Made by a program: the position numbers and the translations under genes. A stretch of DNA of 64,000 nt from Nitrosopumilaceae archaeon. GTDB lineage: Archaea; Thermoproteota; Nitrososphaeria; Nitrososphaerales; Nitrosopumilaceae. The stretch spans positions 126,287 through 190,286 of the forward strand of contig CBDATR010000009.1 of the NCBI GenBank assembly GCA_965200155.1. The letters are read 5' to 3'. Under the pieces are notes generated by a model. That model worked only from the letters and a program-made list of their open reading frames with translations. It had not been told where the DNA came from and did no database searches. How positions within the stretch are numbered: position 1 is the stretch's first letter; each line of letters begins with the position of its first letter. Shown here in pieces: positions 553 to 33,765 of this stretch.

Positions 553-1779
553 ATGACGGCAAGCAAGGAGGTAGAGGTACGGGGACACCTCATAGATTCC
601 ATGATTCTGGCAAAAGTCATGGACAGGGTAATGAATCACAAGGGCAGTTTTGAGTTCATAGACTTCAATGTAGGTACCAAGGTAAGTGACACCAGTTATG
701 CGAAACTTCGCATCATCGGACATGATGAGGCCCATCTCAAGAGCATACTAGATGACATCCACAAGGAAGGCGCAGAAGATATCATGCCAGCTCCCATTAT
801 GCTCATGGAGGCTCCCGATGACATGGTTTTGCCGGTGGATTTCTACAGTACGACCAATAACAAGACGCTACTATTCCATGACGATACATGGATTACCGTT
901 GAGAACCAGATGATGGACAAGTGTATCAGGGTAAGAGGTCATGAGGCCGCGTGTATAACCATACGGGAAGTCAGGAAGGGCGATATGATAGTGTGTGGCG
1001 AGATCGGCATACGGGTGGTACCACCACAACGACCCCGGGAAGAGGCCAACATATTCTCGTTCATGGGGAGTAGTAGCTCCAGCGAGAGGCCAACTCAGCA
1101 TATAGCTAGGCGCGTCGCGGAGAACCTGCTTCGAACCAAGGAGAGGGGCGGCAAGGTCGTGATGGTTGGAGGGCCAGCCATAGTACACACTGGTGCTGCG
1201 CCATCAATAGCATCGCTCATACGCCGAGGTTACATAAACGGGGTTCTGGCAGGAAATGCCCTGGCAGTACACGACATAGAGAATGCCCTATTCGGCACAT
1301 CCTTGGGGATGCATGTCAAGAATGCCACTCTGGCCAGCAAGGGATACAGGAACCACATGGATACTGTGAATGCGGTATTCACTTATGGCTCCATACGAAA
1401 TATGGTAGAGTCGGGCAGACTTAGTAGAGGAATATTCTATGAGTGCATCAAGGCAGATATCCCATTCGTGTTGGCGGGCTCCATAAGAGATGACGGACCA
1501 TTACCGGATGTCATTACCGATGTTGTGGAGGCCCAAAAAGAGTACAAAAAAATAGTAAAAGGCGCAGACATGGTTCTCATGATATCCACCATGCTGCACT
1601 CCATAGCCACGGGGAACATGTTACCGTCCAGTGTTGATATAGTGGCCATGGACATAAACCAGTCCACGGTGACCAAGCTTATTGACCGGGGTACATGGCA
1701 GGCACTGGGTATAGTTACTGATGTGGGTGCATTTCTGCCCCTAGTGGAGCAGATAGTGGTCAGTATGGAATCAGCATAA
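553..1779 (+). CDS. LOR/SDH bifunctional domain protein (TIGR00300-like, putative ornithine cyclodeaminase)
   Basis: GHLIDS N-terminus, FYSTTN, GGPAIVHTG, AGNALAVHDIE, AGSIRDDGPLP. Confidence 0.85.
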   Translation: MTASKEVEVRGHLIDSMILAKVMDRVMNHKGSFEFIDFNVGTKVSDTSYAKLRIIGHDEAHLKSILDDIHKEGAEDIMPAPIMLMEAPDDMVLPVDFYSTTNNKTLLFHDDTWITVENQMMDKCIRVRGHEAACITIREVRKGDMIVCGEIGIRVVPPQRPREEANIFSFMGSSSSSERPTQHIARRVAENLLRTKERGGKVVMVGGPAIVHTGAAPSIASLIRRGYINGVLAGNALAVHDIENALFGTSLGMHVKNATLASKGYRNHMDTVNAVFTYGSIRNMVESGRLSRGIFYECIKADIPFVLAGSIRDDGPLPDVITDVVEAQKEYKKIVKGADMVLMISTMLHSIATGNMLPSSVDIVAMDINQSTVTKLIDRGTWQALGIVTDVGAFLPLVEQIVVSMESA

Positions 1780-3284: not shown

Positions 3285-3690
3285 GTATGAGTTCACGTGT
3301 TTTGATCACATAATAAGATAGAATGCATCCCAGTTTTTTAATTATAATTGCATTCTGGCAGCAACCTCGTTCATTACAGAAAGGCCCTGAGCCCTCCATG
3401 TCTGAACACATATGGACATGCGGCGCATGGCCCTTTCACCACCCTTTATCTGACCACTAATCTTGTGGAAAAATGCAGGCGGTGCGGAAAGTACATCCGT
3501 ATCGCTTTCACCACCCTTTATCTGACCACTAATCTTGCGGAATACCACTGCGTATCAGAACCGGTTCCACTGCTCCACTGGATTGTTGGTCGGCGCCACA
3601 CTGTCATATTCTAAGAATACGAACATGCCTGGTATGGCCTTATTCAATCCTTTTACCTTCTTTTGCAGTTCAGTATCATCAACATCATAA
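3285..3690 (-). mobile_element. IS66 right-end fragment containing a repeat-spacer-repeat insertion
   Basis: TIR GTATGAGTTCACGTGTTTTGATCA at 3285; near identical to reverse complement of 6310-6652. Confidence 0.9.
3433..3540. repeat. CRISPR-like unit 1: 36-bp duplication (3433-3468, 3505-3540) flanking a unique 36-bp insert
   Basis: ctttcaccaccctttatctgaccactaatcttg(t/c)gg twice; empty site present in other IS66 copies (e.g. 8049). Confidence 0.9.
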
Positions 3691-4664: not shown

Positions 4665-4980
4665 GTATGAGTTCACGTGTTTTGATCATTCACTAAGATA
4701 TAGGTATGAGTTCACGTGTTTTGATCATTCACTAAGATATAGATTGGTATGGTAATATTTTACTTAAATACCAAATTTGCAATAAGAATCTAATGAGAAG
4801 ACGCCGGTCCTATAAGGAATTGGAACTGGAAAATAAACTTCTTCAGGATACCCTTGCGTCTACCGAGAAAGATCTTGCACATTACAAGGAACGTGTGAGA
4901 GTATTGGAAGCATATGTGTCCCGCATCATAAAAGAAATACGAAATCTCACACAAGATTTCCAAATTATTAGGAATTATGT
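4665..4980 (+). mobile_element. Two stacked IS66 left-end stubs (4665-4703, 39 bp; 4704-4980, 277 bp)
   Basis: Near-exact duplicates of the start of the element at 4981. Confidence 0.9.
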
Positions 4981-6652
4981 GTATGAGTTCACGTGTTTTG
5001 ATCATTCACTAAGATATAGATTGGTATGACAATATTTTACTTAAATACCAAATTTGCAATAAGAATCTAATGAGAAGACGCCGGTCCTATAAGGAATTGG
5101 AACTGGAAAATAAACTTCTTCAGGATACCCTTGCGTCTACCGAGAAAGATCTTGCACATTACAAGGAACGTGTGAGAGTATTGGAAGCATATGTGTCCCG
5201 CACCACAAAAGAAATACGAAATCTCACACAAGATTTCCAAATTATTAGGAATTATGTAAATGAATTGAATGAGAAATTAGAAGAAAAACAGGGGAAAATT
5301 GCGGTACTCACAACGCGACTTAAATATTATGAGAATGCTCACTCGCCACCATCCCTTCAATCCCTCCAGTACAAGAAGCGAAAACAGGAGGAACAGAAGC
5401 GAAAACAGGGAGATAATAAGCAACAGACAGAAGCCAGTACGAAATCAGCCAAAAAGGCTGGCGCGCAAAAGGGACACAAGGGGGTTTCCCGTTCCCACAA
5501 CCCCGGCAGAGTAGTGCATCACACCTTTGAGTACACACCAATATGTGAGTGCGGCAATATGATGACAAAAATTGGTTGGAAACAACGACACATAACGGAA
5601 TTAATACCAGCCAAAATAGAGGAGACCCTTCATGTGATAGAAATGGCTGCATGCAAGTGCGGCAAAAAACAACTGGCCCCAGCAGCGGGCGTCCCAAAGA
5701 GTGGTAGTTTTGGGGTTCAATTATGTGGTGCCATCACCGCATTACGCGCAGAAAAGATTCCAATAAAACGCATACCTGTAATTTCGAGGGATCTCTTCGG
5801 CCTAAATATATCGGTGGGTGCAGTAAACAACATAATTGCCAGGGCCGCCGATGCATGTGAATCATTTATGGAAACAATTCATGAGAATATAATAAAATCA
5901 CCCAGCATTCATGTGGACGAAACTGGTATATCACTGGCGGGTAGGCGTGGCTGGGTATGGGGGATGCGAGCCGAAGAGTGGATGATGTCCATATATGACA
6001 AAAGTAGGAGTTCAAATGTAGTGAACAAATACCTGAACGGTTACCAGGGAGCGATAGTAACGGACAGGTACGTTGTGTACCGCCGGTTTGATGACGGTGG
6101 GAAGCACCAGTTGTGTTGGGCGCATTTATTGCGCGATACCCAGGCATTACATGCAGGATTCTATATCGATCCCGGTGCTCAGGACGCCCGGATCAAACTT
6201 GACAACGACCTGAAAGGATTGTTCCGGAGCGCACGGGAATCCCTGAATCACTGCGGGCCGTCCGCGCAATTACGACACTCATTTGAGACAGGAGCAGATG
6301 CATCAGTACTGTGATGTTGATGATGCTGAACTACAAAAGAAGGTAAAAGGATTGAATAAGGCCATACCATGCATGTTCGTATTCTTAGAATATGACTGTG
6401 TAGAGCCCACCAACAATCCAGCGGAGCAGTGGAACCGGTTCTGATACGCAGTGGTATTCCGCAAGATTAGTGGCCAGATAAAGGGTGGCGAAAGGGCAAT
6501 GCGCCGCATGTCCACATTCGTATCATGTGTTCAGACATGGAGGGCTCAGGGCCTTTCTGTTATGAACGAGGTTGCTGTCAGAATGCAGTTATAATTAAAA
6601 AAACTGGGATGCATTCTATCTTATTATGTGATCAAAACACGTGAACTCATAC
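4981..6652 (+). mobile_element. IS66-family (ISBst12-type, single ORF) insertion sequence, 1672 bp
   Basis: 24-bp TIRs GTATGAGTTCACGTGTTTTGATCA; TnpC-like ORF only. Confidence 0.9.
5070..6595 (+). pseudogene. IS66 TnpC-like DDE transposase, frameshifted near 6300 and with a stop at the 6430-6442 scar
   Basis: Coiled coil, NAHSPPS, GAQKGHKG, Zn ribbon, IHVDETG, VTDRY, HQLCWAHLLR, then PTNNPAEQ in another frame. Confidence 0.9.
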
Positions 6653-7900: not shown

Positions 7901-8304
7901 GTATGAGTTCACGTGTTTTGATCATATAATAAGATAGAATACATCCTAGTTTTTTAATTATAATTGCATTCTGGCAGCAACCTCGTTCATTACAGAAAGG
8001 CCCTGAGCCCTCCATGTCCGAACACATATGGACATGCGGCGCATGGCCCTTTCACCACCCTTTATCTGGCCACTAATCTTGCGGAATACCACCGCGTATC
8101 GCAGAGTCTGCTCCGCTGGATTGTTGGTGGGCTCCACACTGTCATATTCTAGGAATACGAACATGCCTGGTATGGCCTTATTCAATCCTTTTGTATGAGT
8201 TCACCTGTGTCTAAATTTACGCACAACTGATCGCGACAGTTAGTGTGATTTGTGCACAAGATTCCGGAAGACGTTAACTCATACATCCTTTTACCTTCTT
8301 TTGC
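7901..8304 (-). mobile_element. IS66 right-end fragment (unscarred, empty site) with MITE-A at 8193-8284
   Basis: Reads PTNNPAEQTLRYAVVFRKISG; MITE TSD ATCCTTTT. Confidence 0.9.
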
Positions 8305-8551
8305 GTATGAGTTCACGTGTTTTGATCATTCACTAAGATATAGATTGGTATGACAATATTTTGCTTAAATACCAAATTTGTGATAAGAATCTAATGAGAA
8401 GACGCCTGTCCTATAAGGAATTGGAACTGAAAAATAAGCTTCTTCAGGATACCCTTGCGTCTACCAAGAAAGAACTTGCACATTACAAGGCAGGGGCCAT
8501 GGGCCGCCTTGTCCTACGTCTTGCGGCTACCGATAAAGATCTTGCACATTA
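8305..8551 (+). mobile_element. IS66 left-end fragment containing a repeat-spacer-repeat insertion
   Basis: TIR at 8305; cttgcg...cttgcacatta duplicated at 8454 and 8520. Confidence 0.85.
8454..8551. repeat. CRISPR-like unit 3: 36-37 bp duplication around a 29-30 bp GC-rich insert; second copy truncated
   Basis: Compare empty sites at 4853 and 5130. Confidence 0.7.
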
Positions 8552-27573: not shown

Positions 27574-28235
27574 GTATGAGTTCACGTGTTTTGATCATAT
27601 AATAAGATAGAATGCATCCCAGTTTTTTAATTATAATTGCATTCTGGCAGCAACCTCGTTCATTACAGAAAGGCCCTGAGCTCTCCATGTCTGAACACAT
27701 ATGGACATGCGGCGCATGGCCCTTTCACCACCCTTTATCTGTCCACTAATCTGTATGCCGTATTTGGCAAGATAACACCCTTGGCCAAATTCACCTTTCA
27801 CCACCCTTTATCTGCCCACTAATCTGTATGAGTTCACCTGTGTCTAAATTTACGCATAACTGATCGCGACAGTTAATGTGATTTGTGCACAAGATTCCGG
27901 AAGACGTGAACTCATACACTAATCTTGCGGAATACCACTGCGTATCAGAACCGGTTCCACTGCTCCGCTGGATTGTTGGTCGGCTCCACACTGTCATATT
28001 CTAGGAATACGAACATGCCTGGTATGGCCTTATTCAATCCTTTTACCTTCTTTTGTAGTTCAGTATCATCAACATCACAATACTGATGCATCTGCTCCTG
28101 TCTCAAACGAGTATTGTAATTGCGCGGACGGCTAGCAGGGATTCACGTGCGCTCCGAAACAATTCTTTCAAGTCGTTGTCAAGTTTGATCCGGGCGTCCT
28201 GATCACCGGGATCGATATAGAATCCTGCATGTAAT
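27574..28235 (-). mobile_element. IS66 right-end fragment with repeat-spacer-repeat unit and MITE-A (27826-27917)
   Basis: TIR at 27574; MITE TSD ACTAATCT. Confidence 0.9.
27722..27830. repeat. CRISPR-like unit 2: 36-bp duplication (27722-27757, 27795-27830) flanking a unique 37-bp insert
   Basis: ctttcaccaccctttatctg(t/c)ccactaatctgtatg twice. Confidence 0.9.
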
Positions 28236-33334: not shown

Positions 33335-33765
33335 GATGATACTGAACTACAAAAGAAGGTAAAAGGATTGAATAAGGCCATACCAGGCATGTTCGTATTC
33401 CTAGAATATGACAGTGTGGAGCCGACCAACAATCCAGCGGAGCAGTGGAACCGGTTCTGATACGCGGTGGTATTCCGTAAGATTAGTGGCCAGATAAAGG
33501 GTGGTGAAAGGGCCATGCGCCGCATGTCCATATGTGTTCAGACATGAAGGGCTCAGGGCCTTTCTGTTATGAACGAGGTTGCTGCCAGAATGCAGTTATA
33601 ATTAAAAAAACTGGGATGCATTCTATCTTATTATGTGATCAAAACACGTGAACTCATACGAATTATGTATGAGTTCACCTGTGTCTAAATTTACGCATAA
33701 CTGATAGAACCGGTTACCAGTTAATGTGATTTGTACACAAGATTCCGGAAGACGTGAACTCATAT
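33335..33765 (+). mobile_element. IS66 right-end fragment (33335-33659) and MITE-A variant (33667-33765)
   Basis: Similarity to other copies. Confidence 0.88.

Follow-up and report, generated by a model that had tools for sequence, protein, structure and literature searches.

Background

Integration of spacers outside the CRISPR array and the use of a molecular ruler in repeat duplication are already known. Nivala, Shipman and Church (Nat Microbiol, 2018) reportedly observed off-target, non-canonical spacer integration by Cas1-Cas2 and named the products 'neo-CRISPR' loci. Repeat duplication governed by a molecular ruler is said to have been found by Goren et al. in 2016 in the type I-E system of E. 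coli, and the same has reportedly been found in the type II-A system of Streptococcus thermophilus. Off-target integration that creates duplications of repeat length is described in bioRxiv 10.1101/148544, and for the Cas1-Cas2 of Pyrococcus furiosus, off-target sites are reported to resemble the real repeat in short features (PMC6698737). For the type I-B system of Haloarcula hispanica, PMC4872114 places the end of the duplication at a set distance, independently of sequence. For a type I-G Cas4/1, leader-side integration is reported to be more specific than spacer-side integration (PMC10504553); in the type I-G system of Geobacter, a TTN motif accompanies 50% of unique spacers, and its share exceeds 80% when all spacers are counted (PMC6547450).

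Here we describe a locus in a sponge-associated, ammonia-oxidising Nitrosopumilaceae archaeon that is very probably the scar of the archaeon's own type I-G Cas4/Cas1-Cas2 integrase acting outside its array. As in neo-CRISPR loci, an insert of spacer length lies within a repeat-length duplication of non-CRISPR DNA, and the sites share short features of the repeat. Unlike those loci, the present case is natural rather than the outcome of over-expression, and it concerns an archaeal type I-G system with a Cas4/Cas1 fusion; the genome also holds about 60 such events in 2.4 Mb, at least 24 of them with inserts from the host chromosome, and one event spans the junction of a miniature inverted-repeat element (MITE) already in place. 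The likeness to molecular-ruler systems is that the duplication starts at a site defined by sequence and ends at a set distance, whatever the sequence there. The ruler studies used engineered repeats, whereas here a MITE has naturally replaced the distal 5 bp and the flank, and 63 unrelated targets can be compared; unlike in those systems, a mid-repeat anchor motif was not identified here. With the type I-G systems of Geobacter sulfurreducens and Methanosarcina barkeri (formerly I-U), as described in PMC6547450 and PMC10504553, this genome shares the fused Cas4/Cas1, spacers mainly of 36 bp, a more specific leader-side reaction, and a repeat whose start and end are similar short sequences. Strong TTN selection and oriented integration into the array are reported for those systems, whereas the ectopic inserts described here show weak TTN and no consistent orientation. 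What is unusual is the density of events, the self-derived inserts and the natural swap of sequence. In titles and abstracts, sponge archaea included, we found no record of natural genome-wide ectopic or off-target integration.

Structure of the insertion

The window analyzed is a stretch of 64,000 nucleotides. Inside a truncated IS66-family copy (27574..28235, with a transposase remnant on the minus strand), whose left terminal repeat GTATGAGTTCAC was placed at 27574-27585 by a terminal-repeat search, a unit-insert-unit structure of 36 bp, 37 bp and 36 bp can be read at window 27722-27830. A repeat search returns the two units as 37-nt copies (27721-27757 and 27794-27830), 97% identical and spaced 73 nt apart. 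Unit 1 (27722..27757, plus strand) runs 36 bp from CTTTC and is made of 31 bp of IS sequence followed by GTATG. The inserted 'spacer' (27758..27794, plus strand), of 36-37 nt, is a copy of host DNA. Unit 2 (27795..27830, plus strand) ends in five bases (27826-27830) that are the first five of a 92-bp MITE (27826..27917, plus strand). The MITE has the same terminal repeats as the IS66 element and lies between the two copies of its 8-bp target-site duplication, ACTAATCT (left copy 27818..27825, right copy 27918-27925, plus strand). It starts 31 bp after CTTTC, and GTATG, its bases 1-5, closes both units; IS copies free of the MITE have TGCGG in place of GTATG (window 3505-3540 and 8049-8084). 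Alignment of the IS copies, together with the sequence of the locus, thus confirms what the first-pass annotation had proposed, namely that a MITE lies 31 bp into the target and that the duplicated unit ends in GTATG instead of TGCGG.

The target unit falls within the sequence that encodes, on the minus strand, the C-terminal part of an IS66-family transposase. Window 5070-6314 contains an intact paralogue of this transposase, which matches PF03050 DDE_Tnp_IS66 in a profile search (E 2.4e-28). A DDE transposase, a shared terminus (GTATGAGTTCAC) and the 8-bp duplication ACTAATCT on both sides of the MITE identify an IS66 element and a MITE that depends on it; MITE-type terminal repeats occur 53 times in the window. 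The first 20 nt of the unit are found 7 times in the window (0 expected) and 74 times, at 72 loci, in the 2.38-Mb genome. The unit-insert-unit form occurs at only two of these 72 loci, the present one and window 3433-3540, and the remaining 70 IS66 loci hold a single unit, that is, an empty site. The event at 3433..3540 (plus strand) has no MITE and consists of a unit (3433-3468), a 36-nt insert (3469-3504) and a second unit (3505-3540), both units terminating in TG(T/C)GG. A third IS66 copy, with one unit at 8049..8084 (plus strand), provides the 'empty site' reference, and other single units lie at 6459-6494 and 33475-33510 (minus strand). Both the inserts and the IS copies differ between the two events, which are thus independent, as had been claimed from the window alone.

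The two copies of the unit differ at one base in both IS events, the left copy having T and the right copy C (27742 vs 27815; 3466 vs 3538). At 27742/27815 other IS copies have A or G, so that neither T nor C matches them. An error of gap repair or a variant of the assembly may account for the difference; in one public contig, T seems to be present after the insert too.

The same octamer receives the MITE repeatedly, in both orientations, in other IS copies. At C24:499577, for example, an IS66 copy carries the MITE reversed at this site, with its own 8-bp duplication and no insert. Three composites (G000:C10:381947, C24:187571 and C10:229879, where G000 stands for this genome) join the left end of IS66 (179 bp, up to the MITE hot spot) to a MITE. 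They lie in unrelated DNA, each between an IS terminus and a MITE terminus, and were evidently mobilised as a unit; they appear to represent a new non-autonomous element born of MITE-in-IS insertion. IS66 has a second hot spot close to the 5' end of its transposase gene, a partly palindromic unit of 37 bp that occurs 76 times in the genome (window 4866-4889, 5143-5166 and 8467-8490 on the minus strand; elsewhere, for example, G000:C24:500780-501180). Its native pair is 66 bp apart, and at least five different inserts have been acquired there; one locus has two consecutive extra inserts.

The window sequence is present in runs labelled sponge metagenome, and the genome encodes an archaeal AmoA. 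Contigs of two public runs from two studies (X1 and X5) cover the insert and one unit-insert junction at a depth of 43-130, compared with 25-36 on the unique flank; this support is partial, as no contig spans the whole copy and one of the two runs is possibly the source of the assembly. Confirmation from reads, which the first-pass annotation had called for, therefore extends to the insert and a junction and stops short of the copy as a whole. The contigs of the public runs are too short to span the repeats. In runs X7 and X9 the insert is not covered, which proves nothing.

Donor of the insert and order of events

The insert at 27758-27794 is self DNA. Its donor, G000:C24:402598-402633, is identical at 35 of 36 positions and belongs to a single-copy housekeeping gene, that of aIF5B, as judged from matches to IF-2 and EF-Tu domain 4. 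The donor has ATG at one flank and CC at the opposite one, so that five junction bases can be assigned either to the insert or to the duplication. Because the donor flanks match the junction bases, the duplication at this locus is bounded at 32-37 bp. The claim that it still measures 36 bp from CTTTC consequently stands in one respect, a unit length within the normal range, and exceeds what this locus alone can prove in giving exactly 36 bp. Each ambiguous base amounts to one coincidence between donor and target whichever way it is assigned; no split is therefore favored by the locus itself, and the prior from other events decides. This prior points to a duplication of 36 or 37 bp.

However the junction is split, at least GT of the MITE stays within the unit as long as the donor match is contiguous. 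Since the unit always includes MITE bases, the MITE preceded the insert, and the order originally proposed, MITE first and insert second, holds for each of these splits.

Similar insertions across the genome

A genome-wide search for direct repeats at fixed spacing, from which tandem protein repeats were removed before counting, yielded 63 unit-insert-unit events outside the array. Their periods are 71 (4 events), 72 (27), 73 (18), 74 (8) and 75 (6). Pairs of 33-41 bp duplications number 63 at periods 71-75, against 24 in total over the other 45 periods of the range 50-99. The matched stretch measures 36 bp in 19 events, 37 bp in 29, 38 bp in 4, 39 bp in 2 and 40 bp in 3, and is shorter in 6. 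Four of these six shorter-scoring events, including that at window 3433, are duplications of 36-39 bp in which a mismatch lies close to one end, while 34 and 35 bp were measured for the other two; the duplicated stretch may thus be at least 36 bp in 61 of the 63 events. Duplications of 31 bp in other copies, which would have turned the GTATG match into a coincidence, were not seen among the 63 events, the shortest being the two just mentioned. The targets are mutually unrelated in sequence.

Copy identity and inserts were counted in the 59 events whose core is at least 34 bp. The two copies are identical in 48 of them, with 11 mismatches in 2,176 nt overall, and 56 distinct inserts are present, one event occurring in four IS copies. 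With about 26 events per Mb, the genome is an exceptional one, and it is rich in IS66 copies and MITEs as well. Forty-two of the 59 events lie where no open frame of at least 450 nt exists. The excess of events could plausibly stem from weak purifying selection in a symbiont restricted to its host. Periods divisible by 3 are found in 29 of the 59 events, compared with 35% in the array; 17 events fall within long open frames, and 9 of them have such a period. These figures are only suggestive of reading-frame selection on the periods.

At G000:C9:44441-44839, five tandem 71-bp units precede a copy in which the 37-nt insert is a different one (donor C10:414241-414277). This locus may be an ectopic event that was amplified in tandem.

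Relatives were sampled at 400 kb each and subjected to the same event test. The sample of G006, whose Cas4/1 is 66% identical, contains three clean events, and that of G005 (Cas4/1 59% identical, 127-repeat array) contains none. Because Cas4/1-positive G005 shows no event, presence of the enzyme is insufficient. No events were found in the 400-kb samples of G010 and G016, which have no Cas1 match. A search of a genome-contig collection with Cas4/1 retrieved only distant relatives, of at most 51% identity.

The type I-G CRISPR-Cas locus

The contig that contains the window also carries, 56 kb upstream of it, a CRISPR-Cas locus of type I-G. It encodes a Cas4g/Cas1g fusion of 549 aa (NF049935, 710.7 bits for a cut-off of 560) with Cas2 (91 aa) next to it, both frames being open. 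Past the array lie Csb1, Csb2, Cas3g and a Cas3-extension protein. The profiles NF049935, TIGR02621, TIGR02570 and TIGR02165 all exceed their cut-offs, which identifies Cas4/Cas1, Cas3g, Csb1 (Cas7g) and Csb2 (Cas5/6). Our search of the genome, which is 87.6% complete, returned only one Cas1. In the same 87.6% complete assembly, the large subunit Csx17/Cas8g was found neither with TIGR04113 nor with the Csx17 of the relative G001, in which TIGR04113 does find the protein; nor was Csx17/Cas8g found in G005 or G006.

The array comprises 289 repeats of 36 bp and 288 spacers. Spacers measure 35 nt (16), 36 nt (85), 37 nt (101), 38 nt (63) or 39 nt (15), and thus 280 of the 288 fall between 35 and 39 nt; three have 41 nt or more. 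The main periods of the array are 72 (85), 73 (101) and 74 (63).

Several features of the neighborhood may be recorded here. An IS with a DDE_Tnp_4 transposase in two frames lies directly upstream of csb1 (L018:6700-8800; G000:C9:98700-100800) and occupies the place where the large-subunit gene of a type I-G system might be expected. A three-unit mini-array is found between the stop of cas4/1 and the start of cas2 (G000:C9:70403-70589; L002:18404-18590): a 37-bp stretch of the junction is repeated around two 37-nt inserts, the donors of which are C10:291117-291150 and C24:421310-421346. Both the cas4/1 and the cas2 frames are kept intact, 148 bp further apart. A defence island adjoins the cas genes (L018:8754-19958 and L019:1-2826), with a DUF1156 methylase accompanied by split DUF499 frames, an SNF2-type helicase and a type ISP restriction enzyme. 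Far from the array, a solitary diverged CRISPR repeat with 4 mismatches in 36 lies at G000:C43:~1560-1595 (minus strand; L020).

Sources of the inserted DNA

An ungapped match of at least 30 nt elsewhere in the genome was obtained for 28 of the 59 inserts. Four of the 28 are copies of a single multi-copy event and were dropped, leaving 24 donor-resolved events. In 15 of these 24 the insert is identical to the donor over its full length, and a duplication of 36 or 37 bp is compatible with all 24. Nine events are unambiguous, with a duplication of 36 bp in seven and of 37 bp in two; their duplication and insert lengths are 36+38, 36+39, 36+36, 37+35, 36+35, 36+36, 36+36, 36+37 and 37+36.

Spacers of the array match sequences outside it in 2 of 288 cases, one a 28-nt overlap with an ectopic insert on C25 and the other a 17-nt match that is probably due to chance. 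The ectopic insert in question (G000:C25:4797-4831) and the 58th spacer of the array (on C9) overlap by 27-28 nt with a 9-nt offset, and evidently share one non-chromosomal source. Thirteen of the 25 self-donors lie on G000:C10 (540 kb, 23% of the genome; binomial p = 0.001), spread over 28-414 kb; a replication-linked source of this excess is possible.

The TTN signal at donors is weak: TT lies one base from the insert, on either flank, in 8 of 25 cases, for 3.2 expected. When events are oriented by their end motif, the side of TTN is inconsistent, with 1 of 9 fitting as read by eye. A weak TTN and an inconsistent orientation thus make the ectopic inserts look like unselected, unoriented prespacers.

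Sequence at one end, distance at the other

The ends were compared in the 42 distinct targets whose match measures 36 or 37 bp. T(G/T)C is present at positions 3-5 of at least one end in 24 of the 42, compared with 9.9% of random sites, and at both ends in only 3; this motif is post hoc, having been read from the same data. TTC, chosen a priori from the repeat termini, is found in 8 of 42 targets vs 4.8% of random sites (p = 7e-4), and TGC, in 19 of 42 vs 5.2%, is commoner than the repeat's own TTC. AGT lies just outside 5 of 27 oriented ends, as it does in the real leader before the first repeat. No composition signal was detected at the far end of the oriented units. Likeness of the whole unit to the canonical repeat is weak, the best in-register identity being 11-18 of 36, and twelve-base end scores are only modestly above random. 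Because the TTN orientation is inconsistent, the polarity of events relative to a 'leader' is drawn solely from the likeness of the motif to the leader-repeat junction.

In the IS unit, T(G/T)C is found only at the CTTTC end. The two IS events share this CTTTC boundary within the ambiguity, for 0.005 further events expected there by chance. A search for an internal anchor revealed only a G/C enrichment at positions 11-12, and the MITE leaves positions 1-31 intact. Since the distal sequence was replaced by the MITE, and given the shared register and the one-sided motif, the determinant of site choice lies no further into the unit than position 31; positions 1-31 may also include an internal anchor. 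An anchor on the side of CTTTC and the terminal repeat had been suggested by the first-pass annotation. The side is retained, as the CTTTC end alone carries T(G/T)C; the anchor itself is a weak motif and not the terminal repeat of the IS.

The position of the other cut follows from distance, whatever the local sequence. This is supported by the swap of the distal 5 bp and flank by the MITE, after which the unit still has a normal length, and by the 63 unrelated targets of the same length. A ruler of about 36 bp, as first suggested from this single locus, agrees both with the 61 of 63 events that can be at least 36 bp and with the nine unambiguous ones at 36 or 37 bp.

Proposed mechanism and alternatives

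The locus combines a duplication of repeat length, an insert of spacer length that is unrelated to its flanks, intact cas1-cas2 genes in the genome and an empty site for comparison, all of which are expected of off-target integration. The agent, and which of the two cuts came first, we infer: geometry and co-occurrence point to Cas4/Cas1-Cas2. The first-pass annotation had gone no further than a resemblance to CRISPR integrases, and the genome's own type I-G enzyme is now the evident candidate. A 92-bp MITE would first have entered a dead IS66 copy at ACTAATCT. The integrase would then have captured a 36-37-bp piece of the archaeon's own aIF5B gene and joined it to the IS at two points, in staggered attacks separated by 36-37 bp, and gap repair would have duplicated the stretch between the cuts. 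The duplicate would carry the first bases of the MITE because the MITE was already 31 bp into the target. One cut would have been placed by the short sequence at the CTTTC end, much as at the leader-repeat junction of the array, and the other by distance alone.

The reverse order of events would be a duplication of only 31-32 bp (to ...AATCT) around a 41-42-nt insert starting G-T-ATG, followed by entry of a MITE into its hot spot in unit 2; GTATG would then match by coincidence and the event would be silent on the ruler. The donor flank, GGATG, does match the GTATG of the unit at 4 of 5 bases, and the MITE is known to enter this very site in other IS copies in either orientation. However, no other event is so short, the two shortest having 34 and 35 bp and the nine tight ones 36 or 37 bp, spacers of at least 41 nt are rare in the array (3 of 288), and an extra substitution is needed at the second base of the insert. 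We regard this order as extremely unlikely. An artefact of assembly or recombination, by mis-joining of IS66 and MITE copies, has a probability close to negligible, even though the region is built of high-copy repeats and no public contig spans it whole: the insert is unique and derives from a single-copy housekeeping gene, contigs from two studies cover it together with a unit junction at about the depth of the unique flank (43-130 vs 25-36), and an assembler cannot make some 60 structures with fixed geometry and distinct inserts.

A different integrase, or repair-linked templated insertion, could also be imagined to add about 72 nt at a time. That the inserts are mostly self DNA, mostly without the expected PAM, and that Cas4/1-positive G005 shows no event in 400 kb would fit such a process. 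It would not explain why duplication and insert lengths each match the repeat and the spacer of the array, rather than merely their sum, nor why the end motif resembles the leader-repeat junction; moreover, one mini-array lies within the cas1-cas2 junction, and samples from Cas1-negative relatives have no events. No other enzyme known to us produces a duplication of repeat length with an insert of spacer length inside it, and we consider another mechanism very unlikely. Ectopic activity of the Cas4/Cas1-Cas2 integrase on an IS66 copy already interrupted by a MITE thus remains the reading that we favor.

Implications

The novelty lies in the combination, within one genome, of enzyme, array, donors, about 60 scars, a natural distal swap and a one-sided motif. 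Where rulers had been shown with engineered repeats, the MITE provides a natural swap experiment, and it is accompanied by about 60 independent off-target events with identifiable donors. Without bench work, such a set gives the target preference of a type I-G system (a motif at one end and none at the other), its measuring distance of 36-37 bp and the lengths of its prespacers.

Adaptation can thus scar the host chromosome with self DNA, and the real array is nearly free of self spacers (2 of 288 with any outside match). This contrast between array and scars bears on how autoimmunity shapes arrays and on the origin of new ones. More speculatively, CRISPR adaptation may be a sizeable mutational process in this host-restricted archaeon: the integrase would copy pieces of self DNA into dozens of sites, the choice being made by a motif of 3-5 bases together with a ruler, and some of the resulting units would lie in IS66 elements of an active family that spread them further. 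One unit-insert-unit structure is already present in four IS copies, and we tentatively suggest that mobile elements might in this way seed and disperse proto-CRISPR arrays.
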